A DNA stretch of 64,000 nucleotides from an uncultured Clostridia bacterium (GTDB taxonomy: Bacteria > Bacillota > Clostridia > Christensenellales > UBA1242). The translations under genes and the position numbers were made by a program. This document shows, in pieces, positions 2,463 to 60,582 of this stretch (within the stretch, counting starts at the first letter, position 1; every line of letters starts with the position of its first letter). Location of the stretch: assembly GCA_944376495.1 (NCBI GenBank), contig CALWCW010000066.1:3299-67298 (forward strand). The letters are read 5' to 3'. Below the pieces are notes generated by a model. That model was given only the letters and a program-made list of their open reading frames with translations. It was not told the DNA's origin and did not search any database.

Positions 2463-2600
2463 AAGGAAGTTTTATGCTTTCTTTTTTTATTATAAATTAA
2501 AATATTGACAATTTTAATGTTTTCTTTTGTGTATATTTTAGTTTATTTTATTAAATAAATTACAATTATCTAAAAATATCTATTATTTTATAAATTACAT

Positions 2601-2676
2601 CTAGGAAGCAAAAATTTTGACAAGTCAAAATTTGGGTTTGCTATCGCAAACAGCACATGAATGTGCGGCTTCCTAG
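2601..2676. repeat. Cloverleaf-like nested-palindrome element, copy 1 (possible structured RNA)
   Basis: Closing stem CTAGGAAGC/GCTTCCTAG encloses three hairpins: AAATTTTGAC-aa-GTCAAAATTT, GTTTGC-tatc-GCAAAC and GCACA-tgaa-TGTGC. Followed by TTGTTTTTTT. Confidence 0.7.
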
Positions 2677-2783
2677 TTGTTTTTTTAAAGCTCTATATAA
2701 AAATAACACAATAAAATAAAGTTAACTAATATATTATAATCAAGAACCTTAAATTTTTTTGATTTTGATTCGGTACAAGACAA

Positions 2784-2812
2784 TTGACATTGTCAAACAA
2801 GTATGTTATAAT
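2784..2812 (+). promoter_or_regulatory. Consensus promoter TTGACA-17-TATAAT, 8 nt before the ATG (leaderless architecture)
   Basis: -35 at 2784-2789, embedded in the palindrome TTGACA-T-TGTCAA. -10 at 2807-2812. No SD in 2813-2820 (TTTTTTAT). Confidence 0.7.
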
Positions 2813-2820
2813 TTTTTTAT

Positions 2821-4557
2821 ATGGAGCAAACATTAGAAAAGTTTAAATCTCATTTGTTTAAAGTCTGTGAGGATGATTGCCTTCGTAAACTTGCACTTGA
2901 TTTTTATGAAGATTTTAGTAAGTTCTATAAGGGGCAAGTTTTTGTGCGTGAAAATTTTGAAACAATTGAGATTGATGGGGAAATTTATGAACAGGATATA
3001 GTAAAAGATTTATTTGCTGATAAAGACGAGGTTACGGCGGAAGAAATTTTCACTTATAATTTTATTAACTTTGTTGAAAAATTGGAGTTCTTTGAGAAAC
3101 AAAACCATGTTGCTGGGGTTGTTAATGCAATCAAAAAACGTATTTTATTATATAAACCAAATTCTAAACAATTTTTTAATTATATTGTTGATAAGACAAA
3201 AGACACTCCTCCTTTATTTTCAATATTTTCAGAGAGCAAATTAAATAAAGGTGTAGAACTTTCTAAAAATCAAATTGCTGAATATAAAGCAATAGCAAAA
3301 AAATATGATATTGACATGGAAGCACAAATTCAAGCGTTACGCAAGAATCCTGAAAAAATTATTAAAGAAACTTTTTATCATGAGTTTTGTCATCTATTTG
3401 AAGTGAGAAAATTTAAAAATGGCAAGTATTTAAAAAATAACATGTCCAGTAGAATAGTCGAATTAAAAAATAAGAGAAGAAAAAAATGTATGTCAGGAGT
3501 GACATCTATTGATGAAAATTTGAAAGTTAAAGAAAAATTTATTAAAGATAATGCTTGTCTTATAGGCTCAAATGCGTTATCTGAAATTTTGAATGAAGAA
3601 CTAAATCAAAATGTTTTAAGAAGATTTTCAACAAAAGATGTTTCTGGCCTATATCAATCTACCGCTTCAAAAAAACAGATGAATAGTGGGTCAACTTATA
3701 GAATTAATTATGATTTTGCAACATTGTTTAAATGTGTAATTTTTGATGAAGATATGAAAAACTTGAGATTTAATGCAAGTCATATGATTAAATGTTTTAA
3801 TCAATTTCAAATAAGTGAAGAACTTTTGTCAAAATGTATAGAAGATATAAAAACAAATCTAATAAATATTAATTATGATATTTATTTTCGAGTTCAAAAT
3901 GTTTTAGATAATTTGAAAAGTGGCAAAAATACTAGTTTTGAAATTATTAATATTTTATCTGGTGTTTTCGAAAATGCAAAAAATATGGATGATACTTTTG
4001 TCTTTTATACCAAACTTTCACCTTATTTAATCGAATTTAAAGAAAATATTCAAGCTTTATATATGGATGTCATAAAATCTTCAGTCATTCAAAAGTTAAA
4101 TGATGACCAGTTTGTTAAAGATGATGAATTTTACAAACAACTTAATCAAACTTTGGAAAACATAGATAATTTTCTTATTTATCCCGTTGAAAATATTGAA
4201 GAAAATTACTTTGATGAAAATGGAAAGAAAGAACGGAAAAATCATTCTTCTTTGAATTTATATTCGCTTGATAAATGTGTTGAAAAATTTAAAAACAAAC
4301 TTGAAAATCATAAACAAATAAAAATTTTCCATGAATTATTTCATTTGATTAAACAACATGTTGAAAATTTGCCAGATGAAGAGAGGGAGAGGGTATTATC
4401 TCATTTGACTTTCTTTGAAAAACAAGATTCTATAGATAAAAAATATGATGCTCTTCAACTATTTTTAACATTTGATGAAATTTATAATGAAAGGTCCTTT
4501 CATTTATCGCAACAAACAAACAGGCAATTAGATGATAGCGAAAAGGATTTATTTTAA
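2821..4557 (+). CDS. Hypothetical 578-aa protein with a single HExxH (zincin-like) motif
   Basis: Long uninterrupted ORF. Motif ETFYHEFCHLFEV near residue 187. No signal peptide or TM segment. K/N/E-rich and helical-looking. Confidence 0.75.
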   Translation: MEQTLEKFKSHLFKVCEDDCLRKLALDFYEDFSKFYKGQVFVRENFETIEIDGEIYEQDIVKDLFADKDEVTAEEIFTYNFINFVEKLEFFEKQNHVAGVVNAIKKRILLYKPNSKQFFNYIVDKTKDTPPLFSIFSESKLNKGVELSKNQIAEYKAIAKKYDIDMEAQIQALRKNPEKIIKETFYHEFCHLFEVRKFKNGKYLKNNMSSRIVELKNKRRKKCMSGVTSIDENLKVKEKFIKDNACLIGSNALSEILNEELNQNVLRRFSTKDVSGLYQSTASKKQMNSGSTYRINYDFATLFKCVIFDEDMKNLRFNASHMIKCFNQFQISEELLSKCIEDIKTNLININYDIYFRVQNVLDNLKSGKNTSFEIINILSGVFENAKNMDDTFVFYTKLSPYLIEFKENIQALYMDVIKSSVIQKLNDDQFVKDDEFYKQLNQTLENIDNFLIYPVENIEENYFDENGKKERKNHSSLNLYSLDKCVEKFKNKLENHKQIKIFHELFHLIKQHVENLPDEERERVLSHLTFFEKQDSIDKKYDALQLFLTFDEIYNERSFHLSQQTNRQLDDSEKDLF

Positions 4558-8302: not shown

Positions 8303-8331
8303 TTGACAAAATTAAATATTTGTTAAATAAT
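8303..8331 (+). promoter_or_regulatory. Promoter TTGACA-17-AATAAT, 6 nt before the ATG (leaderless architecture)
   Basis: -35 at 8303-8308 and -10 at 8326-8331. No SD in TATTAC before the ATG at 8338. Confidence 0.55.
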
Positions 8332-8337
8332 TATTAC

Positions 8338-8943
8338 ATGAGCATATTACTTTCTTTTTTAATTGGCTTATCAATGCTTTTTTCTTATTCAGTTGGTGGC
8401 GAAGGGGTGATTATAGCATCACATTGCTATCTTTTTTCATCTCCGTCTTTTGAAAGTGAAAAAATTATGAATGATGATAGCGAACTAATTTTATATCATA
8501 ATGATAAAGTGACTATTTTGCAAGAAGATGGAGATTTTTTACTTATTAGGACTGAAGAATATGATAAAGAAGGTTATGTTTATAAATATTATGTTACGTC
8601 AAATTCTTCGCAAGATGTTTATCCTGTTTTTAATGCGACAATAAGAAATGATACAACCATCTATGATTTAGACCAAAAACCAACCGAATGGACAGCAAAG
8701 GCAGGAAGTCGAGTTTATATCTACGGCGGATTTAATGAAAATGGAATGACCGCTATTCAAGTGGTGCTTGAAGATGGCAGTTTGTATAATGGTCTTGTTA
8801 ATTCTGAAGATTTAAGTCCAGACGGAATAAGTTCGACTTTGATAATAGGTATTTCTGTTATTGCAGCGGCGGTTACAATAATTTTATCAATTGTCTTTTT
8901 GAAAAAGACAAAGAAGAAAAAAGCAAAAAAAATTCAAAATTAA
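8338..8943 (+). CDS. Secreted, C-terminally membrane-anchored protein with SH3b-like repeats (hypothetical)
   Basis: N-terminal signal-like MSILLSFLIGLSMLFSYS. GYVYKYYV-type SH3b signature. C-terminal TM segment plus KKTKKKKAKK tail. I prefer ATG 8338 to the track's TTG 8320. Confidence 0.65.
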   Translation: MSILLSFLIGLSMLFSYSVGGEGVIIASHCYLFSSPSFESEKIMNDDSELILYHNDKVTILQEDGDFLLIRTEEYDKEGYVYKYYVTSNSSQDVYPVFNATIRNDTTIYDLDQKPTEWTAKAGSRVYIYGGFNENGMTAIQVVLEDGSLYNGLVNSEDLSPDGISSTLIIGISVIAAAVTIILSIVFLKKTKKKKAKKIQN

Positions 8944-10562: not shown

Positions 10563-11483
10563 TTAGTCAAATCGCAATCCTTTTAAAACGGGTTGACGCA
10601 TCCCTCCATCTTTTGTCAACATCATATATTGCACAGTGCAGATTAGATTGGGATTTATCCATATAATGTCCTTATCTTTTAATTGCTCAAATAGTGGTTT
10701 CTTAATTTTATTTATACTAGCAAAGTCTAGTAGTAAGTTTTTTTCTTCTTTTGACATAGTTGCATTTACATTTCCTCTATATTGAAGATTTCCTTGTTTG
10801 TCAAAATCGCCTAAAATTAAATCTTTTATTTTTCCATTGTCATCCAATTTGAATCCGCATACTATAAAATCTTCGTCAAGAAGATTTTTTATTTTTATCC
10901 AATTTTTACTCCGCTTTCCTAGTTCATAAACGGAATCTTTTTTCTTGGCAACAATTCCTTCCAAATTTAATTTTTTTGTTTGATTAAAAAGTTCAATTCC
11001 TTTTTCTTCAATATAACGACTTATGCTCAAAAGTTCGTTTTCTTTAATAGTCTTTTTTAATAATTCTTTTCTTTCAAGCAATGGCTTATTTATGAGTTCT
11101 CTATCTTTTAAAAATAATATGTCGTAAGCAACAAAATGAACTTTTGTTTTTTCGCTTTCAATTTCGATTCGAAATTTATCTGTTAAAAGGCTTCGTTTTT
11201 GTAAGGCAAAAAAATCGGGTGTACCGTTTTTGCTTATAACAACCAGTTCACCATCAATTATACACTTCTCTTTAGCTTGCTTGTGAATATTGTTGAGTTC
11301 GGGATAAACAGAAGTGACGTCTTTATTTCTTTTGTTACGCAAAATGGTTTTATCATTATCTAAATATGCAACGCATCTTATACCATCAAGTTTAAGTTCG
11401 TAAATATAATCTTTGTCATTAAAGGGGAGTTTTTCACTTTCAAGAAGCATCGGTGAAATATTTTTCTTATCAAACAAATTCAT
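10563..11483 (-). CDS. ligD: ATP-dependent DNA ligase (LigD ligase domain only)
   Basis: Adenylation motif YELKLDGIRCVAY (KxDG). 306 aa with no polymerase or nuclease domain. Start lies 1 nt after the ku stop. Confidence 0.85.
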   Translation of the reverse strand: MNLFDKKNISPMLLESEKLPFNDKDYIYELKLDGIRCVAYLDNDKTILRNKRNKDVTSVYPELNNIHKQAKEKCIIDGELVVISKNGTPDFFALQKRSLLTDKFRIEIESEKTKVHFVAYDILFLKDRELINKPLLERKELLKKTIKENELLSISRYIEEKGIELFNQTKKLNLEGIVAKKKDSVYELGKRSKNWIKIKNLLDEDFIVCGFKLDDNGKIKDLILGDFDKQGNLQYRGNVNATMSKEEKNLLLDFASINKIKKPLFEQLKDKDIIWINPNLICTVQYMMLTKDGGMRQPVLKGLRFD

Positions 11484-11484
11484 C

Positions 11485-12276
11485 TTATGCCTTCTTTTTT
11501 ATTTTGACAACTTTATCAAGATTTTGAACCGAAGCCTGTAAAGCATCCATAAGGTCAGTGATTTTAATCGTTTTGTCATCATCAACTTGTTTTATTTGTT
11601 TTCCTTTTGCTTTATCTTTAATAGCCTGTTTGACACGAGCGTTATATTCATCTTTGTAATCAGCGGGGTTAAAATTTCCGCTCATACCTTTTATAATCTC
11701 TTTTGCTAAAGTAACCTCTTGCTTTGAAATATCTTGCTTGATTTCACCTGTTGGACTATGTTGAACTTCTTCATCAAAAAATAATTTGCTTAATAAAAGG
11801 TTGTCATCTCGCACCCAAAGAGCAATTACGCATTCGCTAGACCCTAGCATAGTTTTTGCAATTCCAACTTTATTTTCCTTTTTTAAAACTTCCTTTAAAA
11901 GATAGAAGGCTTTTTCAGCACCCTTACTCTCTGGAACAACATAGTAAGTTTTGTCATAATAAATAGGATTGATTTCTTCAAGCGATACAAATTTGTCAAT
12001 AATAATATTTTTATCTTTTTTGCTTTTAAGCCTTTCAAGTTCTTCATCTTCAAATATAACATATTGCCCTTTTTCTATCTCATATGCTTTCACAATATCT
12101 TCATTTTTTAAAACTTTGTCATTACAATCAACGCAAGTTTTCTTGTATTGGACTCTTGATTTTGTTTTTTTATCAAGCATATTAAATCCTATATCATTGT
12201 TCTTAATGGTATTGTGAAGGGTTATAGGAATATAAACAAGCCCAAAGCCTATTGAAGTCTTGTAACTATAAGCCAT
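11485..12276 (-). CDS. ku: Non-homologous end-joining protein Ku
   Basis: N-terminus MAYSYKTSIGFGLVYIPITLH is typical of bacterial Ku. SD AAAGGAG precedes the ATG at 12276, so the track start 12312 is rejected. Confidence 0.85.
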   Translation of the reverse strand: MAYSYKTSIGFGLVYIPITLHNTIKNNDIGFNMLDKKTKSRVQYKKTCVDCNDKVLKNEDIVKAYEIEKGQYVIFEDEELERLKSKKDKNIIIDKFVSLEEINPIYYDKTYYVVPESKGAEKAFYLLKEVLKKENKVGIAKTMLGSSECVIALWVRDDNLLLSKLFFDEEVQHSPTGEIKQDISKQEVTLAKEIIKGMSGNFNPADYKDEYNARVKQAIKDKAKGKQIKQVDDDKTIKITDLMDALQASVQNLDKVVKIKKKA

Positions 12277-15822: not shown

Positions 15823-16542
15823 TTATTTTATAAGGGCTAAAATGTTTTTAAATTTTTGTTTATCTTGTTTTTTATATGTTATATAAAAATTCATTGTCGC
15901 ATCATCATCAAGAATTGGCAAACTTATTCTATTAATTTCCGCACGAACTGGTAAAGTCAAGTTTGTTGAAAAATTAGGAATGGTTGAAGCATTTATAATT
16001 TCGTATAGGTTTTCCATTGCTTGAGGGAAAAATTTAGATTTAGGGAGATTTTTGGCTACGATTTTGTCCCAAATTCCTAAATTTTCAGCCACCAAAAAAG
16101 ATTGTCCATCAATTTCTTTAAAATGAACACCATTTTTCATCCCAGATAAAAAATGCGATTTAGGAATTGTTATGTATAAATTTTCTGTAAAAGCAAATTT
16201 TGATTCAAGTGTAGGGTCTAAAACTTCATTAGAAGTAAAGATAAAATCATAATTGTTATTTTTTAGTCCATAAATTAAATCATTTTCTTCTTCAATCTTA
16301 CTTTTAATTGTCTTAACGGGAAACATTGAATAAAAAAGGTTGCCATATTTAATCATTGGTCCTGGTGCAACTGAACCAATTGATAAATTCGTCTTTTGAT
16401 TATAAAAAGCAATTACTCTTTCACGCATATATTCTTCAGCATCAATAACATTAATGGCTTGGCGGACAAGTTCATGCCCGACATCGTTTAAAGATAATTT
16501 ATTTTTTGTTCTGTCAAAAATAGGAACGGAAATATGAAGTTT
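15823..16542 (-). pseudogene. LysR-family regulator, 5'-truncated (HTH lost)
   Basis: The substrate-binding domain is intact. The frame stays open upstream of the track start and reads ...[26 protein letters not shown], the end of a LysR HTH/linker. It then hits a stop at 16549-16551 with no start codon. Confidence 0.75.
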
Positions 16543-16838
16543 TGGTTGCTATTGGGAAAAAATATAACAAATCATCTGCTCAAGTAATTTTACGTTGGCT
16601 TATTCAACGTGGAGTGATTGTCGTTTGCAAATCAACGCATTTAGAAAGAATACAAGAAAACTTTAATGTTTTTGATTTTGAATTGACAGAAGAAGATATG
16701 AAACAAATTAAACAACTTGATAAAGAGGAGAGTCTTTTCTTTAATCATCAAGATCCTAAAATGGTGGAATGGTTTGACCAAATTGTGATGGTTCGTAGAA
16801 CTAATAATGACGCAAGTAAAGAAAAGAAATCTTGGTAG
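16536..16838 (+). pseudogene. Aldo/keto reductase, C-terminal about 100 aa only
   Basis: [55 protein letters not shown] matches the AKR C-terminus. The N-terminal roughly two-thirds is absent. In-frame stop at 16521-16523. Confidence 0.75.
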
Positions 16839-17207: not shown

Positions 17208-18128
17208 TTAATTTACTAAAAATCCTTGAATTATATAATCTTCTGCTTCTTTTTGTGTTAACCCTAATGTCATGAGTTTTATAAGTTCATCTCCTGCAAT
17301 CTTTCCTATTGCGGCTTCGTGAACTAATGAGGCATTATTGTCAATCGCATCAATTTTTGGAATAGAAATAATTCTTGCTTTGTCTAGTAAAATTCCATCA
17401 CATTCAACATGACCAAAACATTCATTTTTACCAATGAGGTCTGACTTAAATTCTTGATAAGAGTTGTCTTTTGCAACGCTATGGCTTACAACCTCCACCG
17501 AAGAATGTTCTCCTATTAAATCAACTTTGAATTGAGTTTTGGCTGTTTGATTTTCTGTAGTTAAAATATTTTCATGTATGATTAATTTCGCCTTATCTTC
17601 AAGTTTTGCGTATGTTTTTCTTAAAGAGAGAGTGACTCCGCTAAGTTGAGAGGTTTCAAGTTCCATCACGCTATTTTCTTTTTGATAAATTCTAGTCACA
17701 GGATTTAAAATCTTTCCTCCGCTTCCTTCTCCCTCTCCAATATGTCTTTCAATATATTTAACTTTGCTATTTTTCCCAATATGAAAACTATGAATGCCAT
17801 TATGCGAACTTGTATTACACGTTTTATTATGGATTCCGCAACCTGCAACGATTACAACGTCACAATTTTCGCCAATATAAAAGTCATTATAAACTAAATC
17901 ATTAAGTCCACCAACGGTTATAATAACAGGAATATGAATACTTTTGTTTTTAACATTTGGATGAACAATTATATCTATTCCGCTTTTATTCTTTTTGGGA
18001 ACAATATCTATATCTTTAGTTGATTGTCTTTCCACTGCTTGTCCATTTTTACGCAAGTTGAATGCTCCGCTTGGGATAGAGTGTAGGTCGGCAATTTTTT
18101 CAAGTAATTTTTTCTCTATATTATTCAT
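17208..18128 (-). CDS. SufB/SufD-family Fe-S cluster assembly protein
   Basis: Beta-helix-type repeats and C-terminal ...ASLVHEAAIGKIAGDELIKLMTLGLTQKEAEDYIIQGF. ATG at 18128 preceded by GAGGTG. Overlaps the sufC stop by 8 nt. Confidence 0.75.
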   Translation of the reverse strand: MNNIEKKLLEKIADLHSIPSGAFNLRKNGQAVERQSTKDIDIVPKKNKSGIDIIVHPNVKNKSIHIPVIITVGGLNDLVYNDFYIGENCDVVIVAGCGIHNKTCNTSSHNGIHSFHIGKNSKVKYIERHIGEGEGSGGKILNPVTRIYQKENSVMELETSQLSGVTLSLRKTYAKLEDKAKLIIHENILTTENQTAKTQFKVDLIGEHSSVEVVSHSVAKDNSYQEFKSDLIGKNECFGHVECDGILLDKARIISIPKIDAIDNNASLVHEAAIGKIAGDELIKLMTLGLTQKEAEDYIIQGFLVN

Positions 18129-18825
18129 TTTCACCTCGCAATCTTCCGCATTTGTCATTTTCTAGCATTGGTGCTATATCATTTAGTTTTCCTTGTGCTA
18201 ATATCTCTCCATTCTTCAATAAGATTATTTCATCGGCAATTTCTAATATTTTTTTCTGATGACTTACAATAATATTCGTTGCGTTTTTTAGTGACGAAAA
18301 AATTTTGATAAGATTGTCAAAACTCCATAGGTCAATCCCAGCCTCTGGTTCGTCAAAAATATTTAGTTTTGCATTTCTAGCAATAGCCATTGCAAGTTCT
18401 ATTCTCTTAAGTTCTCCGCCTGAAAGTTTGTCGTCAATAGGGCGGTCAAGATAGTCTTTTGCACATAACCCAACAGTTGATAAAAAATCACAATGATTAT
18501 TGAGTTTATTTTTTTCACCGCTTGCAAGGTCTAAAAGTTCTCTTACTTTTATGCCTTTAAATGTAACAGGTTGTTGAAAAGCATAACTTATGCCTTTTCT
18601 TGCTCTTTCATCAATCGTTAGGGCTGTCAAATCCTCATTATCAAAAAAGATTTCTCCACTTGTTTGTTTTAAAATGCCCATTATGATTTTAACAAGTGTA
18701 GATTTACCACTGCCATTAGGCCCAGTTATAACATATATTTTTTCGTCTTCAAATTTTAGATTTATATCTTTTAAAATGTCATTATTCTCTTTGACACTAT
18801 AACTTAATTTTTTTATTTCTAACAT
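18121..18825 (-). CDS. sufC: Fe-S cluster assembly ATPase SufC-like (ABC ATPase)
   Basis: Walker A GPNGSGKST, signature LSGGELKR, Walker B NIFDEPEAGID. Paired with a SufB/D-family gene. Confidence 0.75.
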   Translation of the reverse strand: MLEIKKLSYSVKENNDILKDINLKFEDEKIYVITGPNGSGKSTLVKIIMGILKQTSGEIFFDNEDLTALTIDERARKGISYAFQQPVTFKGIKVRELLDLASGEKNKLNNHCDFLSTVGLCAKDYLDRPIDDKLSGGELKRIELAMAIARNAKLNIFDEPEAGIDLWSFDNLIKIFSSLKNATNIIVSHQKKILEIADEIILLKNGEILAQGKLNDIAPMLENDKCGRLRGENE

Positions 18826-18831
18826 GCTTGT

Positions 18832-18860
18832 ATTATATCAAAAGCAAATTCTTTTGTCAA
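18832..18860 (-). promoter_or_regulatory. Consensus promoter TTGACA-17-TATAAT, 6 nt before the sufC ATG (leaderless architecture)
   Basis: Minus strand: -35 at 18860-18855 and -10 at 18837-18832, then ACAAGC and the ATG at 18825. No SD. Confidence 0.7.
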
Positions 18861-25157: not shown

Positions 25158-25186
25158 TTGACTTTATTTTTTCTTAATGCTAAAAT
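25158..25186 (+). promoter_or_regulatory. Promoter TTGACT-17-TAAAAT of the T-box leader
   Basis: -35 at 25158-25163 and -10 at 25181-25186. Confidence 0.65.
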
Positions 25187-25192
25187 GTAGGC

Positions 25193-25398
25193 ATTAAGAC
25201 GTTGAGAAAGTAAGTAGTTTTATTATAAGCTTTCAGAGAGACAGTGGTTGGTGAAAACTGTTAAGTTTTATAAAATGAAAGACAACTTTTGAGTTTTAAA
25301 AATATTTTCTTAATGAGTGGTCATTTTGACAAATTAGGTGGCACCGCGGATAAAAATTATTCGTCCTAATGCAAATATTTTTGCGTTAGGACTTTTTG
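25193..25398 (+). promoter_or_regulatory. T-box leader (tRNA-sensing riboswitch), specifier GAC (Asp)
   Basis: AGAGA box (25235-25240 region). Specifier-loop context GAAAGACAA with GAC at 25281-25283. T-box sequence AAATTAGGTGGCACCGCGG at 25331-25349. Terminator GTCCTAATGCAA/TTGCGTTAGGAC plus TTTTT at 25363-25397. Confidence 0.85.
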
Positions 25399-29012: not shown

Positions 29013-29435
29013 TTATTTTTCTAAATCGTGAATAATGAAGTCGTTTAAATGGTCAGGGGTTATAATGCTATGTAAATCATGTGAGCGAACTCCAACAAAA
29101 GCACCAAACGAACTTTTTACAAAACCAACATAATTATTTTTTTGAATCGATTTATAATAGTTTGAAAGTTCTCCGTATTTTTGACGTATCTGTTCGGCTG
29201 AAATAAAATTCCCTATTAAATATTTTTTTCTATAGATAGGTTCTGATTGCAAGTTTATTATATTATTGCCTATTTTACTATTTTTCTCTAGTTGGTCAAA
29301 TAAAATAATCTGAAAGGTTGTTTCTGGAATTTGAACCTTTTTATTATTTTTAAACTCTACAACGTTAGTTTGAATAACATCTTGAGATGGCACAAATTGA
29401 TTGTTTTGGTAATAACCTGCGTAAAATAATCTCAT
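29013..29435 (-). CDS. Hypothetical 140-aa protein
   Basis: ORF only. No SD. Lies 30 nt downstream of the 88-aa ORF. Confidence 0.5.
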   Translation of the reverse strand: MRLFYAGYYQNNQFVPSQDVIQTNVVEFKNNKKVQIPETTFQIILFDQLEKNSKIGNNIINLQSEPIYRKKYLIGNFISAEQIRQKYGELSNYYKSIQKNNYVGFVKSSFGAFVGVRSHDLHSIITPDHLNDFIIHDLEK

Positions 29436-29732: not shown

Positions 29733-29969
29733 AAACTCAATCCTTTTTTATTATTTTACTATGATAAACAACAAAAGTCAATATCTTTTAAAGATTTATG
29801 ATGTGTAAATTATTTTATTATATCTCTAAATAAAAATCAATATTATTTGACATATTTTTTGTCATTATGTCAAATTTCTACATTTTTGTCTTTGCGAGAG
29901 TAATAAGTTTAAGTTTATAATGATTTAGACAACTTATTATTTTTATACAATAATAAAAAGGTGATTATT

Positions 29970-33969: not shown

Positions 33970-33998
33970 TTGACGTTTAAATTATTTTATATTATAAT
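33970..33998 (+). promoter_or_regulatory. Promoter TTGACG-17-TATAAT, about 210 nt upstream of tRNA-Leu
   Basis: -35 at 33970-33975 and -10 at 33993-33998. Confidence 0.6.
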
Positions 33999-34216: not shown

Positions 34217-34300
34217 GCGGAAGTGGCGAAATGGCAGACGCGCAAGTTTCAGGTGCTTGTGAGTAAAATCATGTGGGTTCGACTCCCATCTTCCGCACCA
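34217..34300 (+). tRNA. tRNA-Leu (anticodon CAG), type II with long variable arm, CCA encoded
   Basis: Acceptor GCGGAAG/CTTCCGC. Anticodon stem CAAGT/GCTTG with loop TTCAGGT. Variable arm TGAGTAAAATCATGT. T-arm GTGGG-TTCGACT-CCCAT. 3' ACCA. Confidence 0.9.
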
Positions 34301-35689: not shown

Positions 35690-35929
35690 TTTACAGCATT
35701 TTACATACACACTAGTAAAGAAGAATATTTTACAGATGAAGTTCCCCATAATTTGTCTGTTAAAATGATTGTAATTGATGAGAAAGCGTATAAACTAGGT
35801 TACGACAATAGTGATGATTCAGATTACTTTGACCTTTGTGACATAGTTCATAGATATTGTTCAATGTTTTCTTTACCTAGCAAACTTTTGGAGCAAGTTT
35901 TATCTAATAAACTATTTGAAAAATGTTAA
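35690..35929 (+). pseudogene. Possible gene remnant (open frame without a credible start; internal ATG 35765 would give 54 aa)
   Basis: The frame is open from the TAG at 35687-35689 to the TAA at 35927-35929. No SD or promoter. It lies in an otherwise empty 370-bp gap. Confidence 0.25.
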
Positions 35930-36000: not shown

Positions 36001-36029
36001 TTGACGAACTATTTGTTTTGGTTTATAAT
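36001..36029 (+). promoter_or_regulatory. Consensus-like promoter TTGACG-17-TATAAT, 6 nt before the ATG (leaderless architecture)
   Basis: -35 at 36001-36006 and -10 at 36024-36029, then TTAATC and the ATG at 36036. No SD. Confidence 0.7.
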
Positions 36030-36035
36030 TTAATC

Positions 36036-36494
36036 ATGGAGTTAAAAAATTTTGGACAACTTAAAAAAGAAGAACTTGAACAAATTATAGATATTCACTA
36101 TAACTATTGGTGCAAATTTAATCCTAGTATGATTAGAGAAAATACTGAAAACAAGTTTAAAAATCTCTATACTTTAAATCAAATACCTATTGGAATTGCT
36201 CTTTTTGATAAGAATAATTTGGTGGTCTTTTGTGTTATCAAAAAAGAGAATTTAAAAAAATATCCTCAATTTTTCCCTTGGATTTCTGATTTAATGATTT
36301 TTGAGGAGTATAGAAATAAAGGTTATGGAACATATTTGGTCAAAAACATTGTCAAGATGCTCAAAAACAAGGGTTTTGAAAAAGTTTATGTCTGGACGGA
36401 CCAAGCACCTAATTTCTACAAAAAATTGGGATTTAAATTTTTGCAAAAGATAGAAAAAAATGAAGGCGGTGAGGGGGAACTTTATGTTATTTAA
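36036..36494 (+). CDS. GNAT-family N-acetyltransferase
   Basis: Acetyl-CoA motif region IFEEYRNKGYGTYLVKNIVKMLKNKGF (R/Q-x-x-G-x-G/A). Confidence 0.8.
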   Translation: MELKNFGQLKKEELEQIIDIHYNYWCKFNPSMIRENTENKFKNLYTLNQIPIGIALFDKNNLVVFCVIKKENLKKYPQFFPWISDLMIFEEYRNKGYGTYLVKNIVKMLKNKGFEKVYVWTDQAPNFYKKLGFKFLQKIEKNEGGEGELYVI

Positions 36495-38899: not shown

Positions 38900-38928
38900 T
38901 TGACAAATTATTTATTATATATTATACT
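38900..38928 (+). promoter_or_regulatory. Promoter TTGACA-17-TATACT, 8 nt before the helD ATG (leaderless architecture)
   Basis: -35 at 38900-38905 and -10 at 38923-38928, then AAATTATT and the ATG at 38937. No SD. Confidence 0.65.
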
Positions 38929-38936
38929 AAATTATT

Positions 38937-40973
38937 ATGATTATTGATGAAGAAAGAAAAAAATATTGTGAAATCAAAGACAAACTTGTTTCATACAGGC
39001 AACATCTAGAGGACGAAAAAGAACTGATAGATAAAGTCAAAGATAACGATATTCAATATATGCTTCAAGAAATCAATGCAAGGCAAATCTATCAATATGA
39101 AAAAAATAAATTGCGTCCTTATTTTGCAAAGATTATTTTTTGCAAAGATGACCAAATTGAACCAGAAATTGTTTATATAGGAAGAATTGGGTTTGCAAAT
39201 TTAGATGATGATATAATAATTGACTGGCGTGCTCCAATTTCTGACCTTTATTATAATTCAAGGCTTGGAAGTGCAAGTTATAAGACAGAAGAAAATTTTG
39301 TGATTAGCGGTGAACTTACGCTAAAACGTCAAATAAATTTTGAAAATGGTGAAATCATATCTGTTTATGATTTAGATAACTCAATAAGTGGTGATGAATT
39401 TTTGCAACCTTATTTAAATGCTTCAGCAGATAACAGACTTAAAAACATTATAGCAACAATTCAAGAGGAGCAAGATAAAATAATTAGAATGCCACTTGGA
39501 GATAATCTAATCGTTCAAGGAGTTGCAGGAAGCGGGAAAACCACCGTTGCATTACATAGGCTTTCGTATTTAATTTACAACAACAGAAAAAGTATTAAGC
39601 CAGATAAGTATTTCATTATCTCGCCAAACATGATATTTAAAAGTTATATTTCATCTTTGCTCGAAGAACTTGATGCAGACCAAGTGAATAGTTCAAGCAT
39701 GGAAGATATCATAAATGTTTTTATCAATAAAGAATATAGGATTTTAAACAAACATGAAATGCACGATATTCTTGAGCAAAAAGGCGAAAATGACGACTTT
39801 TTAAGGTTTAAGGGAAGCGAAGAGTTTGTTCAAGTAATTGATAAATTTATTGAGGACTATGAAAAAGAGTTCTCTTGTCAAGACTTTTTGGTTAAAGGTA
39901 TAAAAATTTTAGATAAATCGGTTTTATATGATAAATATATTCACAATAAAAAAAGCACTATCGAAAATTCAGTTTTCGTTTGGGCTAATGCAATGGACTC
40001 ATTTGTCAAAGATAATGAGGAGATTGAAGAGCATATCAAAAATCTTTATGTTACAGATAAAATTTCTTTTAATCAAAAAATTGAAATTGAAAGAGAACTT
40101 CAAAAAAGTATAAAGGGGAAGATTTTTAAATTTTATAAAAAGAAATCTTTAATGGAACTTTATAAAAAATGTATAAACCAAATTGAAAGATATACCGATT
40201 ATAAATATAGCAAGATTTTGAAAAAATATACCCTTGATAATTTGAATAAAAACATAATCTCTTATGATGACATTGGTGCGCTTATATACCTTTATACAAA
40301 GGTGTTCAATCAAAACGAATTTGAAGATATAAAACTTGTTGCAATTGATGAAGCACAAGACCTATCATTTCTAACATTTAAAGCCTTAAAAGAACTATTT
40401 AAACAGGCAAACTTTTCAATTTTTGGAGATATGGCACAAGGAATTTATGGCTATCAATCTATTAATAAGTGGTCAGAAATTGCCTCGATATATGATAGCC
40501 CAAAATTTCTTCATTTAAATAAGAGTTATAGAACGACAATAGAGATTACTTCTTTTGCAAATGAAACATTGAAAAAAATGGATTATCAACTTGCGGACAA
40601 CGTTATTAGGCATGGAGAAAAAGTGCGACAAATTGAAACAATGCAAGTTAAAGATATGATTTTGCAAGAGATAGAACAATCCAAGAAAAAGGGTTTCAAA
40701 TCTTGTGCCGTAATTTGCAAAGATAAAAATGAACTTTATAAGGCAAATGAACTTCTTAAAGGCATTGTAAAAATGCAAGAAGAAAACGATTCAGATTATG
40801 ATGACAACCAAACAGTTTTATTGACACTTGAATCTGCAAAAGGTCTTGAGTTTGATTTTGTCATAATTTATGATAGTGGAAGTTATGAAGATAACTTGCT
40901 TGATAATAAAAGATATTATGTGGCTCAAACTCGTGCATTGCATGAACTTGTCATAATAAATCAAAAAAAATAA
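38937..40973 (+). CDS. helD: HelD-type (helicase IV-like) UvrD-family ATPase
   Basis: HelD N-terminal signature IIDWRAPISDLYY, Walker A GVAGSGKTT, Walker B AIDEAQD, and a UvrD C-terminal domain (ESAKGLEFDFVII). Confidence 0.85.
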   Translation: MIIDEERKKYCEIKDKLVSYRQHLEDEKELIDKVKDNDIQYMLQEINARQIYQYEKNKLRPYFAKIIFCKDDQIEPEIVYIGRIGFANLDDDIIIDWRAPISDLYYNSRLGSASYKTEENFVISGELTLKRQINFENGEIISVYDLDNSISGDEFLQPYLNASADNRLKNIIATIQEEQDKIIRMPLGDNLIVQGVAGSGKTTVALHRLSYLIYNNRKSIKPDKYFIISPNMIFKSYISSLLEELDADQVNSSSMEDIINVFINKEYRILNKHEMHDILEQKGENDDFLRFKGSEEFVQVIDKFIEDYEKEFSCQDFLVKGIKILDKSVLYDKYIHNKKSTIENSVFVWANAMDSFVKDNEEIEEHIKNLYVTDKISFNQKIEIERELQKSIKGKIFKFYKKKSLMELYKKCINQIERYTDYKYSKILKKYTLDNLNKNIISYDDIGALIYLYTKVFNQNEFEDIKLVAIDEAQDLSFLTFKALKELFKQANFSIFGDMAQGIYGYQSINKWSEIASIYDSPKFLHLNKSYRTTIEITSFANETLKKMDYQLADNVIRHGEKVRQIETMQVKDMILQEIEQSKKKGFKSCAVICKDKNELYKANELLKGIVKMQEENDSDYDDNQTVLLTLESAKGLEFDFVIIYDSGSYEDNLLDNKRYYVAQTRALHELVIINQKK

Positions 40974-42059: not shown

Positions 42060-42088
42060 TTGATTTTTTTTGTAATATTTTATATAAT
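42060..42088 (+). promoter_or_regulatory. Promoter TTGATT-17-TATAAT, 7 nt before the lepA ATG (leaderless architecture)
   Basis: -35 at 42060-42065 and -10 at 42083-42088, then CTTTGTT and the ATG at 42096. No SD. Confidence 0.65.
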
Positions 42089-42095
42089 CTTTGTT

Positions 42096-43904
42096 ATGGA
42101 AAGAATTAAAAGAATAAGAAATTTTTGTATAGTTGCTCATATTGACCACGGCAAGTCAACTCTTGCTGACAGGCTTATTGAAAGCACGGGAACGCTTGCT
42201 AAACGTGATATGCAAGCACAGATATTAGATAATATGGATTTAGAACGTGAAAAGGGAATTACAATAAAGTTGACACCAACTAGGATGAATTACACATTTG
42301 AAGGAGAGGAATACGAACTCAATTTGATTGATACTCCAGGTCATGTTGATTTTACTTATGAGGTTTCACGTTCTTTAGCGGCTTGTGAGGGTGCGATTTT
42401 AATTGTTGATGCTTCTCAAGGGGTTGAGGCTCAAACTCTTGCCAACGCTTATCTTGCCATTGACAACAATCTTGAAATACTTCCAGTTATAAACAAGATT
42501 GACCTTCCAAGTGCAAGACCTGAAGAGGTTAAAAAAGAGATTGAAGATGTCGTTGGAATACCAGCAATGCATGCACCATGTATATCAGCAAAAGATGGGA
42601 CAAATATTGATGAAGTTCTTAAAATGATTGTCAAAGAGTTTCCTTCTCCAAAGGGTGACGAAAATGGACTTTTAAAATGTTTGATTTTTGATAGTTACTA
42701 TGACAATTTTAAAGGTGCTATTTGTCTTATACGTGTTTTTGACGGAACTATTAAGGTTGGAGATAAAATCAAGATGATGCAAACAGGCAAAACATACGAA
42801 GTGACCGAAGTCGGCATTTTTGTACCTAACGAAAAAACTGTTGATAAACTTGAAGCGGGTGACGTTGGTTATATTGCAGGTTCTATTAAAAATATTTCTG
42901 ATATTGAGGTGGGTGACACAATAACAAGTGCAGATAATCCTATTACAGAGGCTTTACCAGGCTATAAAAAAGTTCAACCAGTTGTTTTTTGTGGGGTCTT
43001 TCCAGTTGACGGAGCAAAATATAACGAACTTAAAGATGCTCTTGAAAAATTAAAATTAAATGATGCTTCTCTTGATTTTATGCCTGAAGTTTCTCAAGCA
43101 TTGGGATTTGGTTTTAGATGTGGCTTTTTAGGTCTTTTACATCTTGAAATCATAACAGCACGCATAGAGAGAGAATATAACCTTGATATTATTACAACAG
43201 CACCAAGTGTGCATTATCATGTTCATAAGACGAATGGTGAAATGCTTGAAATTTCCAATCCTTCTTCACTTCCAAATCCAGTTGAAATTGATTATATTGA
43301 AGAACCTGTTGTCAAAAGTAGTATTTTTGCTCCACCTGAATATGTCGGTGCGATTATGGAACTTTGTCAAGAAAAACGAGGAGTTTATAAAGGTTTAACT
43401 TATCTAGATTCAAACAGGGTTCGAGTAGATTATACTTTGCCACTTGGAGAAATAGTCTTTGATTTTTTTGATAGTTTAAAGTCAAGAACAAAGGGTTATG
43501 CAAGTTTTGACTATGAACTTGCAGGTTACAGCAGAAGTGACCTAGTTAAAGTTGATATTCTTCTCAATGGCGAAAAATGTGATGCACTTTCAATCATAGT
43601 TCATAAAGATAAGGCATATTCAAGAGGTCGAGCACTAACTGAAAAACTCAAAAAAATCATTCCACGCCAACTTTTTGAAGTTCCAATTCAAGCCGCTATA
43701 GGCACTAAAGTTATTGCAAGAGAAACAATTTCGGCTATGAGAAAAGATGTCCTAGCAAAATGTTATGGCGGAGATATAACAAGAAAACGTAAACTACTTG
43801 AAAAACAAAAGGAAGGGAAAAAACGTATGAGAAAAATAGGTTCTGTTGAAATTCCTTCCGAGGCTTTTATGTCAATATTAAAACTTGATGATGAGGACAA
43901 ATAA
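42096..43904 (+). CDS. lepA: Elongation factor 4 (LepA)
   Basis: N-terminus [27 protein letters not shown] plus the LepA-specific C-terminal domain. The track TTG start at 42060 coincides with the -35 box and is rejected. Confidence 0.93.
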
Positions 43905-51400: not shown

Positions 51401-51835
51401 CTACAAAATAAGTTCATCTTTTGGTGAACTTATTTTTTCTTTCTTATTACCGTCATCTTTATTTGAAGATTGAGAAAAAATTTGAGAAAGTGAAGAAAGG
51501 TTTGAATTTTTACCTAGCAAAGATAAAAGCATTGGCAAAAGGTTTTGGTTTTGTCCTGAAAATAAATTATTTAATGATGAGAAAGGATTGTCGTTTTGAG
51601 TATTTTGATTTGCTTGACTATTTTCATTAAATTTGCTTTGTTCCGAATAGTGTATGTCATTATTTTGACTTTGCTCCGAGTGAGAACCATTTGAAAAACC
51701 TTGCGTTTGAGAATATGCTTCACTTGGGTAACTTGAAAAAGCGGGATTTTGCGAAAGATTTTGTCCCGAATTTGAATTATTGTTCTGGTTATTGTTAAAC
51801 AATTTTGCAAACATCTCAAGCAAAGAATTATCCAT
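51401..51835 (-). CDS. Q/N/S-rich low-complexity protein (hypothetical)
   Basis: 144-aa ORF. Central 100 aa are dominated by Q, N and S. Short hydrophobic patch LLPMLLSLLG. No SD; a possible weak leaderless promoter TTCACC-18-TATAAA lies 5 nt before the ATG. Confidence 0.5.
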   Translation of the reverse strand: MDNSLLEMFAKLFNNNQNNNSNSGQNLSQNPAFSSYPSEAYSQTQGFSNGSHSEQSQNNDIHYSEQSKFNENSQANQNTQNDNPFSSLNNLFSGQNQNLLPMLLSLLGKNSNLSSLSQIFSQSSNKDDGNKKEKISSPKDELIL

Positions 51836-51963
51836 ATCTTTTTATATTCAAAACATGATAAAAAGGTGAATTATAAAAAACAAATTAAAGATTAAATGGT
51901 TTTTTAAATAAAAATTTTGTAAAAATAAATGCATTTTTTTCATATATTGAATTAGGAGAATTT

Positions 51964-52233
51964 ATGGCAAAATTATCTGATTTTAAATCTAAAAATGAAG
52001 AACAAAAAAAAGATAGATATGTGAGCGAAAATGACTTGCAAAATATTTATAATCACTACAAAGATATGTCGCAAGATGACCTTTCAAAAGAACTTTTCAG
52101 CGAAGTTGCAAGACAAAAGAGTCAAGGAACATTTGATTATGACAGACTGAACTTTATGATAGATTCAATTCGGCCATCTTTAACTAATGAACAATATGTA
52201 AATATGAAAAGGATGCTTGATAGTTTAAAATGA
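51964..52233 (+). CDS. Hypothetical 89-aa protein, translationally coupled to the S8 protease
   Basis: SD AGGAGA. Stop overlaps the next start (ATGA). Confidence 0.6.
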   Translation: MAKLSDFKSKNEEQKKDRYVSENDLQNIYNHYKDMSQDDLSKELFSEVARQKSQGTFDYDRLNFMIDSIRPSLTNEQYVNMKRMLDSLK

Positions 52234-53372
52234 AATACAATAAAATAGATAAAATGCTTTTACAAATTGTTTCATTTTTGGAAACTGATAAAAAATGGGA
52301 TTGCATTGTTAAAGCAAATGATTACATAAGGTTGAAAAATATTTTTAAAAATAAAATTATTCACGTTTTAAATGAATATCCTTTTATTAAATCTTTTAGA
52401 GTTAAAGCAAGCAAAAAAGAGATTGCACTTCTTTCAAATATGAGTCAAGTTCAATTTATTTCTTCGGTCAGCAAGGCCTCTGTTTTAATGAATATTTCAA
52501 AAAAAATATTAGGAATTGAAAGTTCAAGTTTGACGGGGAAGGGCTTAACGGTTGCATTTATTGATACTGGTATTTATGAGCATCCAGATTTTGTTGTCGG
52601 TGAAAAGCGCATAATTTTTTTTAAGGATTTTATCAATAACAAAGAAAAATGCTATGATGATAACGGGCATGGCACTTTTGTAAGTGGTGTTTGCTCTGGC
52701 AATGGTGCGATGTCGGGAGGGAAGTTCTCTGGTATTGCTCCGCAATCAAACATTATAAGTCTTAAAGCACTTAATGGTCTAGGTGAGGCGTCTGCAGATA
52801 AAATTTTAGATGCTATGGAATGGGTATTTAATAATTATAAAAAGTATAACATTAGAGTGGTTTGTATGAGTTTTGGCAGTGAACCGCTTGGCTATAATGA
52901 TCCTATTATGGCGGGTGCTGAAGCGTTGTGGCAAGAAGGTATTGTCGTTGTGGCAGCAGCGGGGAATAGTGGTCCAGAATTTCAAACAATCAAAAGTCCA
53001 GGTGTTTCAAGTAAAATAATAACGGTAGGCGGGTTTAATGATAATCGTATAGATTTAGATAATTTTGATGAACATTTTTTTGAGGTCGCAGAATTTTCTT
53101 CTAGGGGACCAGCGTTTAAAAGGTTCAAACCAGATTTAGTCGCTCCTTCAGTTGACATAGTATCTTGTGGACGAGATAAACCTTACACAACTTTAAGCGG
53201 AACTTCTGTCGCAACTCCTATGATTGCAGGATGTGCTTTGATTCTTTTAGAAAAAGAGCCTTATCTTTCTCCCAATGAGGTAAAACGCACATTGCTAGGA
53301 AATTGTCATGCAATTTGCTATAATAAAAACCTTGAGGGGTATGGTTATCCTGTTATAAATAAGTTAATTTAA
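52230..53372 (+). CDS. Subtilisin-like serine protease (peptidase S8) with an N-terminal propeptide-like region
   Basis: Catalytic triad contexts VAFIDTGI (Asp), HGTFVSG (His) and SGTSVATPMIAG (Ser). Confidence 0.85.
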   Translation: MKYNKIDKMLLQIVSFLETDKKWDCIVKANDYIRLKNIFKNKIIHVLNEYPFIKSFRVKASKKEIALLSNMSQVQFISSVSKASVLMNISKKILGIESSSLTGKGLTVAFIDTGIYEHPDFVVGEKRIIFFKDFINNKEKCYDDNGHGTFVSGVCSGNGAMSGGKFSGIAPQSNIISLKALNGLGEASADKILDAMEWVFNNYKKYNIRVVCMSFGSEPLGYNDPIMAGAEALWQEGIVVVAAAGNSGPEFQTIKSPGVSSKIITVGGFNDNRIDLDNFDEHFFEVAEFSSRGPAFKRFKPDLVAPSVDIVSCGRDKPYTTLSGTSVATPMIAGCALILLEKEPYLSPNEVKRTLLGNCHAICYNKNLEGYGYPVINKLI

Positions 53373-59352: not shown

Positions 59353-60330
59353 TTATGATTTTTTGTCATTATTTAGATTTTTTTCATTTGTATTTTCTTT
59401 ATTTATAATATCTTTAAATATTTTATAACTGACTTGTTTCGGAATGCCAACGCTTTTGTCTTCTTGAACCTCTTTTGTTTTTTCTTTTTCTTCATTTTTG
59501 TCAGTTTTATGATTTATTGAGTTATTCTTTATTTCGTTATCTGTATCTGTTTCTTCACTATAGTTTATAAGAAGAGGCTTTTCTTCGCTTTTCTGTGCTT
59601 GTTTATTTTTGTTCGTTAGTTTTGCACCTAAATTTACAACAAATTTTTCAATTTGGGATTGATATTTGTAACTGACATAAAATAAAACTAAGCAAATTAT
59701 AATAAGAACTATCCAAACAGGAATACCCCATCCGCTATACGGTATTAACTGTCCGCTTCCCAAAAAGCAGGTTGTGGCTATTGTTATAGGCCTTGTGATA
59801 AGGTTGGTGATTATAAAAAATCGATAACTCATATTGACTGTCCCTGCGACAATACATAAAATATCATCTGGGAATAATGGTAAAAGCATCATTAAAAAGT
59901 AAACGAATTTTCCTTGCCTTAATTTCTCTTCCCATTTTAACGTAGTCTTTTCTCCAGCAACCCAAACAACCAATCTTCTGCCAATCTTTTTGCCTAAAAA
60001 GAAGGCAAACAAACTTCCTGAAAAAACTGCAAGAAAACTTATACCCAAAGTTATCCAAGGACCAAATAGTAAGGTTCCTGCGACTGTTGTGACAGCTGCA
60101 GGTATTGGAATTAAGGTTGTTTGTAAAAATTGAATAATAAAAAATATTATATAACTATATGCTCCAAAACTTAATATAACATCTTTTAATTTTTCCGCAC
60201 TATCAATTTTTTCAAGTGTTCCAGTAAGTTCTAGGGGAAGGTATATTGCAAGAAATATTAAAATTAAAGCAACTATAATAATAGTGAGTTTTATTATTTT
60301 TTGTTTGGTTTCTTGTTTTATTTTTGCCAT
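59353..60330 (-). CDS. TVP38/TMEM64 (DedA-superfamily) membrane protein with an N/K/E-rich C-terminal extension
   Basis: Multiple TM segments and the LLPLFPDDILCIVAG motif typical of the family. About 90-aa low-complexity tail. Confidence 0.78.
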   Translation of the reverse strand: MAKIKQETKQKIIKLTIIIVALILIFLAIYLPLELTGTLEKIDSAEKLKDVILSFGAYSYIIFFIIQFLQTTLIPIPAAVTTVAGTLLFGPWITLGISFLAVFSGSLFAFFLGKKIGRRLVVWVAGEKTTLKWEEKLRQGKFVYFLMMLLPLFPDDILCIVAGTVNMSYRFFIITNLITRPITIATTCFLGSGQLIPYSGWGIPVWIVLIIICLVLFYVSYKYQSQIEKFVVNLGAKLTNKNKQAQKSEEKPLLINYSEETDTDNEIKNNSINHKTDKNEEKEKTKEVQEDKSVGIPKQVSYKIFKDIINKENTNEKNLNNDKKS

Positions 60331-60336
60331 ATTAAT

Positions 60337-60366
60337 ATTATAGCATATTTATTGAAAAGATTGCAA
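60337..60366 (-). promoter_or_regulatory. Promoter TTGCAA-18-TATAAT, 6 nt before the ATG (leaderless architecture)
   Basis: Minus strand: -35 at 60366-60361 and -10 at 60342-60337, then ATTAAT and the ATG at 60330. No SD. Confidence 0.65.
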
Positions 60367-60403
60367 GGTGTTTATGTTTGATTTTGTTACTTTTCAATAA
60401 AAA

Positions 60404-60493
60404 GGGCTAGGAAGCATTTTGAACTTCGTTCAAAATAGAAAAGGCTTTGCTTTTTCTGCCTTAAACTTTAAGTTTAAGGCAGCTTCCTAGCCC
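60404..60493. repeat. Cloverleaf-like nested-palindrome element, copy 3
   Basis: Closing stem GGGCTAGGAAGC/GCTTCCTAGCCC (12 bp) encloses ATTTTGAAC-ttc-GTTCAAAAT, AGAAAAGG-ctttg-CTTTTTCT and GCCTTAAAC-tttaa-GTTTAAGGC. Confidence 0.7.
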
Positions 60494-60582
60494 GCCACAT
60501 AATTTAAACATAATGTCAATTTTTATCAACTCATTGTTTTTTAACTAATTGATGTTTTTAATTAAATAAACAAAAATGGATT

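Follow-up and report, generated by a model that had tools for sequence, protein, structure and literature searches.

Candidate leaderless mRNAs at seven genes of an uncultured Clostridia bacterium, predicted from promoters placed 6–8 nucleotides before the ATG

The window and its host

The DNA considered here, called the window throughout, is a 64-kb stretch (27–33% GC, ~62 genes) of contig CALWCW010000066.1 from an uncultured Clostridia bacterium. At seven of its genes, among them lepA, a helD-like gene and a sufC-like gene, a near-consensus promoter ends 6–8 nucleotides (nt) before the ATG and no Shine–Dalgarno (SD) sequence is found, an arrangement that suggests leaderless mRNAs. The seven sites are listed with -35 hexamer, spacer length, -10 element and distance to the ATG, followed by a promoter score out of 12 and, for some, the energy (dG, kcal/mol) of the SD duplex.

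2784..2823, plus strand: promoter and ATG of an orphan gene for a 578-amino-acid (aa) protein (2821–4557); TTGACA (2784–2789)-17-TGtTATAAT (-10 at 2807–2812)-8-ATG (2821); 12/12; SD dG +0.5
8303..8340, plus strand: promoter and ATG of the gene for a 201-aa membrane/SH3-like protein (8338–8943); TTGACA-17-AATAAT-6-ATG; 11/12; SD dG +1.5
18823..18860, minus strand: promoter and ATG of the SufC-like ABC ATPase gene (18121–18825); TTGACA-17-TGaTATAAT-6-ATG; 12/12 (18860–18832)
36001..36038, plus strand: promoter and ATG of a GNAT acetyltransferase gene (36036–36494); TTGACG-17-TATAAT-6-ATG; 11/12; SD dG -2.2
38900..38939, plus strand: promoter and ATG of the HelD-like helicase gene (38937–40973); TTGACA-17-TATACT-8-ATG; 11/12
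42060..42098, plus strand: promoter and ATG of lepA (42096–43904); TTGATT-17-TATAAT-7-ATG; 10/12
60328..60366, minus strand: promoter and ATG of the gene for a DedA/VTT-domain membrane protein (59353–60330); TTGCAA-18-TGcTATAAT-6-ATG; 10/12; SD dG +2.2

The preliminary description of this DNA had measured the host against Bacillus-type Firmicutes. It is instead a Clostridia bacterium of the spore-former type, as judged from the SpoIIE encoded in the window (29970–32249; the 759-aa product is also found in contig L099) and from LepA, whose best matches are metagenome-assembled genomes (MAGs) of Clostridia. The window LepA is 81% identical to that of L002, a MAG labelled Lachnospiraceae, and 72% identical to that of Candidatus Ornithoclostridium (Christensenellales in the NCBI taxonomy). 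Further, the sporulation genes YabP and YqfD lie at the locus of one relative. The same species is present in several ENA (BRZ_* and ONAT22 among them) and Logan assemblies (contigs L001, L095–L097 and L099–L105), which share ~98% nucleotide identity and are therefore uninformative for conservation.

Promoter architecture and Shine–Dalgarno status

The hexamers, the spacers of 17–18 nt and the distance of 6–8 nt between the -10 box and the ATG had been read correctly at all seven sites. An independent consensus scan of both strands, up to position 60000, recovers the sites in that range, several of which rank at the very top of all matches in the window. The -10 box is extended by TGn at three of the seven (2821, 18825 and 60330). 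The start codon is ATG, the codon that leaderless translation demands, in every case, as it is in all additional cases found in the flanks and relatives, although ATG starts discriminate only weakly when they are used by nearly all genes of the window.

Terminator-like structures and T-runs precede the promoters at 2821 and 60330, consistent with independent transcription units. These same intergenic regions, 2598–2690 (plus strand) and 60400–60495 (minus strand), carry multi-hairpin elements with a common 9-bp outer stem, CTAGGAAGC...GCTTCCTAG, enclosing two to three inner hairpins of unrelated sequence and ending in a T-run. Each sits 3′ of a gene and directly 5′ of the leaderless-type promoter. 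The elements match no Rfam family and were found in same-species loci only; complex terminators and a repeated element are possible identities.

For SD status, the duplex energy of positions -22 to -4 against the anti-SD sequence ACCUCCUUU was computed for 62 start codons, and starts with dG above -4 kcal/mol were taken as SD-less. The seven sites range from +2.9 to -2.2 kcal/mol, which confirms the reported lack of an SD at these genes. Among the other 55 starts, 38 lie at -6 kcal/mol or lower, typically with AGGAG or GGAGG, and 11 between -6 and -4. Two initiation modes thus appear to coexist as proposed, leaderless-type at the seven genes and GGAGG-type SD elsewhere. In total, 13 starts are SD-less and 49 SD-bearing, and a promoter at 6–8 nt is found at 7/13 of the former against 0/49 of the latter (hypergeometric P ~3.5e-6). 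The start of rimM (47443; dG -3.3) falls just above the -4 cut and keeps a GGTGA SD-like element.

Besides the seven sites, the SD-less starts comprise 16428, 16542, 13879, 29435, 35765 and 51835. The first two are rejected as functional starts, as they belong to divergent remnants of a LysR-type regulator gene (15823–16428, minus strand) and an aldo/keto reductase gene (16542–16838, plus strand). The LysR remnant retains the substrate domain only, without the helix-turn-helix, and the reductase remnant only the last ~60 profile positions. It looks as if a single deletion took both N-termini together with the shared promoter region, and this truncation explains the two SD-less 'starts'. The open reading frame (ORF) at 35765 has 54 codons and is doubtful. 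The minus-strand genes at 29435, 51835 and 13879 are apparently intact, with no SD and no leaderless-type promoter either; the ATG at 29435 is directly adjoined by CATAAT.

One of these had been put forward as a weaker eighth leaderless candidate: 

51835..51876, minus strand: SD-less start of the gene at 51401–51835; TATAAA box, poor -35

This candidate is not supported, as TATAAA lacks the conserved final T (the -7 T), the -35 is poor and the best score is 5–8/12. Also rejected was the GTG at 29961, since the true spoIIE start is the ATG at 29970 behind the SD AAAGGTGAT, in agreement with the 759-aa product in L099.

Among the SD-led genes, three (14476 and 61530, minus strand; 61758, plus strand) have a -10 box only 18–19 nt from the ATG, as in TTGTCA-16-TGcTATAAT-cactctcGGAGGTaaagaa-ATG. 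Their predicted 5′ untranslated regions of ~11–12 nt hold hardly more than the SD, and leaders seem to be generally minimised in this genome.

Assignment of the start codons

The earlier argument that conserved N-termini fix the starts of lepA, helD and the SufC-like gene is borne out by domain alignments beginning at residues 1–5, by homologues of equal length and by the aligned starts of relatives. In LepA, the match to Pfam GTP_EFTU runs from residue 5, and the L002 protein, likewise 602 aa long, can be aligned from the same start. In the SufC-like protein, position 1 of the NCBIfam profile TIGR01978 aligns at residue 2, and homologues of 233–239 aa align with 100% coverage. The HelD-like protein matches the NCBIfam model HelD_BACSU with 342 bits, which is below the cutoff; its more than 100 homologues measure 668–702 aa with 99–100% coverage, and the orthologues in L098 (60% identity) and L106 (57%) start at the aligned methionine (MSLEEERNKY versus MIIDEERKKY).

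Gene calls on sister contigs agree with all seven starts, that at 8338 in L102. For the GNAT gene at 36036, the calls on L099 and L101 give an identical 152-aa product, and the protein starting at 60330 opens with a basic stretch followed by a transmembrane helix. No SD-preceded in-frame start lies within 60 codons in six of the seven genes. In the remaining one, at 2821, an alternative GTG is found 41 codons downstream with a weak SD (AAGGGG, dG -6.5). The 578-aa product of this gene (2821–4557, plus strand) has no Pfam or NCBIfam match and no homologue outside the species cluster among 5.8 billion proteins; it carries a HEFCH (HExxH-like) motif. Collectively, these data exclude a wrong start codon for lepA, helD and the SufC-like gene and make one unlikely for the others, with the exception of 2821.

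Frequency of the pattern and its spacing

With a score of 10/12 or better, 97 promoter-like matches are found on the two strands of the window. In eight, the ATG of an ORF of 100 aa or more follows at 6–8 nt, and in none does such an ATG follow at 0–5 nt or 9–14 nt. At scores of at least 11/12, 5 of the 15 matches adjoin such an ATG at 6–8 nt. The pattern occurs at 7/62 gene starts, compared with 0.20 expected from 2000 shuffles of the 60 nt upstream (maximum 3). At 2114 other ATGs, the pattern rate is 0.28%, corresponding to 0.18 expected among gene starts (binomial P 6e-10). Even at 327 ATGs in an equally AT-rich context the rate is 0.61%, or 0.38 expected (binomial P 1e-7).

Across the whole window the pattern is counted 13 times: at the seven gene starts, before five ORFs of 1–52 codons and once in frame within a gene, as follows.

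52217..52256, plus strand: extra match TTGATA-18-TAAAAT-7-ATG (52254), eight codons into an S8 peptidase ORF

The called start of the S8 peptidase (52230) overlaps the stop of the upstream gene. The match at 52254 was rejected as a leaderless start and is probably due to chance, or possibly an internal promoter.

When the best promoter scoring at least 10 within 200 nt of each start is considered, the distances from -10 to ATG fall at 6, 6, 6, 6, 7, 8 and 8 nt, then at 18, 18, 19, 23, 29, 31, 39, 42 and 48 nt, and then at 98 nt or more. Such a gap, from 8 to 18 nt, would be expected if a gene either is leaderless or needs a leader of at least ~11 nt to accommodate an SD. The same scan of 80 lepA-centred loci from other Firmicutes (~1.4 Mb, including C. 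perfringens and genomes of 25–30% GC) returned ~8 matches, against eight in the 64 kb of the window, which is thus ~20-fold richer per kb. As the AT-rich control loci are poor in the pattern, the signal in the window is no artefact of AT-richness.

Conservation in relatives and in the flanks

The promoter-to-ATG geometry was compared for the three genes that have informative orthologues, namely the SufC-like gene, lepA and helD. SufC-like orthologues were available from L108 (92% protein identity), L109 (73%) and L110 (71%; 37.6% GC). All three carry TTGACA-17/18-TGnTATAAT-N6-ATG and have no SD (dG +0.6 to +2.2). In the upstream alignment, little is invariant beyond the two hexamers (-35 and -10), the TG and C-ATG, while the spacer, the discriminator and all sequence upstream of the -35 have diverged. 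A footprint of this kind is expected where selection acts on how far a functional promoter lies from the ATG, and in this operon the promoter-to-ATG distance is evolutionarily conserved.

The operon itself (17208–18825, minus strand) is a minimal two-gene SUF-like operon with the SufC-like ATPase gene first. The ATPase scores 130 bits, below the TIGR01978 cutoff. The second gene (17208–18128) is SD-led and encodes a 306-aa SUFBD_core protein with a weak partial match to the 'SUF-like minimal system SmsB' model. The gene pair is conserved in L108–L110.

Leaderless-type candidates were also seen at other genes of the relatives:

L106, 5464: TTGACT-17-TATACT-8-ATG
L106, 5014: TGcTAAAAT-7-ATG
L098, 15903: TTGACA-17-TATACT-6-ATG
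L109, 4755: TTGAAA-17-TGaTATAAT-8-ATG

No leaderless-type candidates were seen at the loci of L002 and of the more distant L107 (47% HelD identity), and a metagenome scan with HelD returned only relatives of 37% identity or less, too distant to be of use. In 19 kb of the same genome lying outside the window (L102 and L104), one further case was found among ~25 genes, a Dus gene with TTGCAA-17-TGcTAAAAT-8-ATG and no SD. The combined estimate is ~8/85 genes, roughly 10%, so that the earlier figure of roughly one gene in ten is sustained both for the window (7/62) and with its flanks.

A compact divergent arrangement was noticed in two relatives, where murC-like (Mur ligase) and murB genes lie only 61–73 nt apart (L106 2592/2666; L098 8475/8537) and one or both have no SD. 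The pair may be another leaderless-type pair of starts in a compact divergent promoter region.

Interpretation and alternative explanations

Taken together, the seven genes, ~11% of those in the window, are probably expressed from leaderless or near-leaderless mRNAs. The housekeeping sigma-A RNA polymerase would transcribe them from the near-consensus promoters. As the -10 box lies 6–8 nt before the ATG, whose A is thus nucleotide 7, 8 or 9 downstream of the box, transcription is predicted to start at this A in the N6 and N7 cases or 1–2 nt before it in the N8 cases. The resulting mRNAs would have no room for an SD and would contain none, and the ribosome with initiator tRNA would recognise the 5′-terminal AUG directly and independently of an SD. 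Such initiation at a 5′ AUG is an established route in E. coli, mycobacteria, Deinococcus, streptococci and archaea. For the genes described here, we infer both the transcription start site and the 70S-type initiation from sequence.

Several observations weigh against this reading or limit it. The predicted transcription starts are read off promoter geometry alone, and the two N8 cases may carry a leader of 1–2 nt. For 8338, 36036 and 60330, the evidence for the start consists of concordant gene calls and plausible N-termini, and the 2821 protein has no homologue outside the species that would fix its N-terminus. In L002, the closest species-level relative, lepA starts at a TTG after a GGGAG SD, and helD in L098 and L106 is SD-led (AAAGGAG) at the same start residue. 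The arrangement at lepA and helD is therefore not kept in L002, L098 and L106, and conservation is not general; the initiation mode thus turns over at individual genes while the start position is unchanged. Further, the rate outside the window (1/~25 genes) is below that within it.

One alternative is chance, given that TATAAT-like and TTGACA-like words are common in DNA of 29% GC and at times come to lie beside an ATG. Indeed, each 20 kb of shuffled sequence gives ~110 promoter matches with a score of 9/12 or better, and five occurrences of the pattern in the window stand before very short ORFs. We nevertheless regard chance as an extremely improbable source of seven gene starts where 0.2–0.4 are expected (P 1e-7 or lower), with zero matches at neighbouring offsets, none at the 49 SD-bearing starts, AT-rich controls poor in the pattern and a SufC-like site conserved across orthologues of 71–92% identity. 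A different possibility is that the starts are mis-assigned and that the true ones lie downstream or upstream behind an SD on normal leadered mRNAs. The downstream GTG of 2821, where no homologue fixes the N-terminus, would fit this. We consider mis-assignment very unlikely: six of the seven genes have no SD-preceded in-frame start nearby, the LepA and SufC-like domains run from residues 1–5, the HelD and SufC-like homologues are equal in length, relatives start at the aligned position, and independent gene calls agree. A downstream start would also leave unexplained why the promoter stands exactly 6–8 nt before an in-frame ATG at the 5′ end of the ORF.

The genes could also be translated independently of an SD from leadered mRNAs, made from upstream promoters or by read-through, with an AT-rich unstructured landing site for the ribosome and with the boxes incidental or of minor use. 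A co-directional gene precedes five of the seven, the SD-less genes at 29435, 51835 and 13879 manage without such a promoter, and in C. phytofermentans 'leaderless' start sites are usually accompanied by a second start site upstream (PMC5171806). This explanation, which we consider unlikely, gives no account of near-consensus boxes at a fixed 6–8 nt or of the conservation at the SufC-like gene, and the terminator-like structures and T-runs before the 2821 and 60330 promoters speak against it. It also sits poorly with the strong SD kept at other genes of the window (the 38 at -6 or lower) and with the generally strong SD dependence of ribosomes from low-GC Gram-positive bacteria.

Comparison with known leaderless systems

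The classical single leaderless mRNAs are those of lambda cI (from PRM) and of Tn1721 tetR, in which a -10 box ~7 nt upstream gives a 5′-terminal AUG that is used independently of an SD. Those are isolated regulators of mobile elements, whereas the genes described here are housekeeping and accessory chromosomal genes (lepA, helD, sufC-like, GNAT and DedA). On a genomic scale, bacterial leaderless genes have their Pribnow box 6–8 nt from the start (PMC6028130). The 'group C' of GeneMarkS-2, which includes Mycobacterium, Streptomyces and Deinococcus, resembles the present case in this spacing and in the lack of an SD, with leaderless genes first in operons and internal and other genes SD-led (PMC6028130). 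It differs in that the box is a bare TAnnnT, in contrast to the full sigma-A consensus TTGACA-17-TGnTATAAT here, and in that 25–50% of operons are affected, against ~11% of genes or ~16% of estimated transcription units (7/~43) here. A strong promoter lies within 50 nt of 16 genes, seven of which are leaderless-type.

Surveys of Firmicutes place 36/1064 genomes (3.4%) in group C with GeneMarkS-2 (PMC6028130), and GeneMark-HM assigned 717/4930 human-microbiome species bins to its leaderless class (PMC8153819). Zheng et al. predicted leaderless genes in 56/209 Firmicutes genomes (mean 4.2%, range 2.4–16.6%), with the predictions concentrated in Lactococcus–Streptococcus, Oenococcus–Leuconostoc and Mycoplasma (PMC3160421). 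By differential RNA sequencing (dRNA-seq), the leaderless share of transcripts is 13% for Lactococcus lactis (PMC4829306) and 8%, all with AUG, for Streptococcus agalactiae (PMC4448216). These two species share with the present case a low GC content, the exclusive use of AUG and a similar leaderless level; most of their leaderless transcripts begin at the A of the AUG, behind a TATAAT -10 box that often has an upstream TG. They are, however, Bacilli (Lactobacillales) with mapped 5′ ends, whereas here the mRNAs are those of a member of the Clostridia and are predicted from sequence. Further, the -35 box is often dispensable in Lactococcus, while a good one is present at all seven sites here.

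Within the Clostridia, start-site maps give 2–3% leaderless transcripts for solventogenic species (PMC9045289) and ~4% for C. phytofermentans, mostly with a retained ribosome-binding site and a second start site upstream (PMC5171806). The class, the sigma-A promoter type and the generally short 5′ untranslated regions are the same, yet here the SD is wholly lost and the leaderless fraction, as predicted, is 3–5 times higher. The preliminary description had called leaderless initiation rare in Bacillus-type Firmicutes. This is overstated in view of the surveys and of L. lactis and S. agalactiae; for the Clostridia, however, maps at only 2–4% make the predicted level here high for the class. A literature search turned up no paper that connects leaderless initiation with Christensenellales-like gut Clostridia.

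Other features of the window

33970–33998, plus strand: 11/12 promoter (TTGACG-17-TATAAT) ~220 nt upstream of the tRNA-Leu CAG gene
34217–34300: tRNA-Leu CAG, the only tRNA in the window
25158–25186: promoter TTGACT-17-TGnTAAAAT
25193–25371, plus strand: T-box leader (102.7 bits)
10563–12276, minus strand: gene pair for Ku and an ATP-dependent DNA ligase (non-homologous end joining)
61758–63773, plus strand: gene for a TraG/VirD4-type coupling protein

Nothing is annotated between the promoter at 33970–33998 and the tRNA gene, and no Rfam match was found there. The T-box leader lies between the promoter at 25158–25186 and the gene that starts at 25485. The coupling-protein gene is followed, just outside the window (L104 12183–16450), by RadC and GmrSD/HNH genes, a region that possibly marks the border of an integrated mobile element.

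Implications

The leaderless mRNA is a well-known kind of transcript and its mechanism is likewise well known; it is predicted here in a class where it is little documented. If the prediction is confirmed, appreciable leaderless expression would be extended to the Clostridia, and gene callers and expression-design rules based on the SD would mis-handle about a tenth of the genes of such gut MAGs.

The comparison with relatives provides a small, clean example of turnover in initiation mode, in which the same start codon is SD-led in one genome and abutted by a promoter in another. The sufC-like operon, by contrast, appears locked into the leaderless mode. It is conceivable, and we put it forward tentatively, that the whole lineage of this species together with L098, L106 and L108–L110 has about one in ten of its genes leaderless, an anciently leaderless sufC-like/SUFBD operon and frequent switching between SD-led and leaderless initiation, as at lepA and helD. 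The leaderless share among transcription units with a strong promoter may be ~40% in this lineage. If true, no 'group C-like' clade would have been described in the Clostridia before this one, and it would offer a natural series for how genes change their initiation mode.

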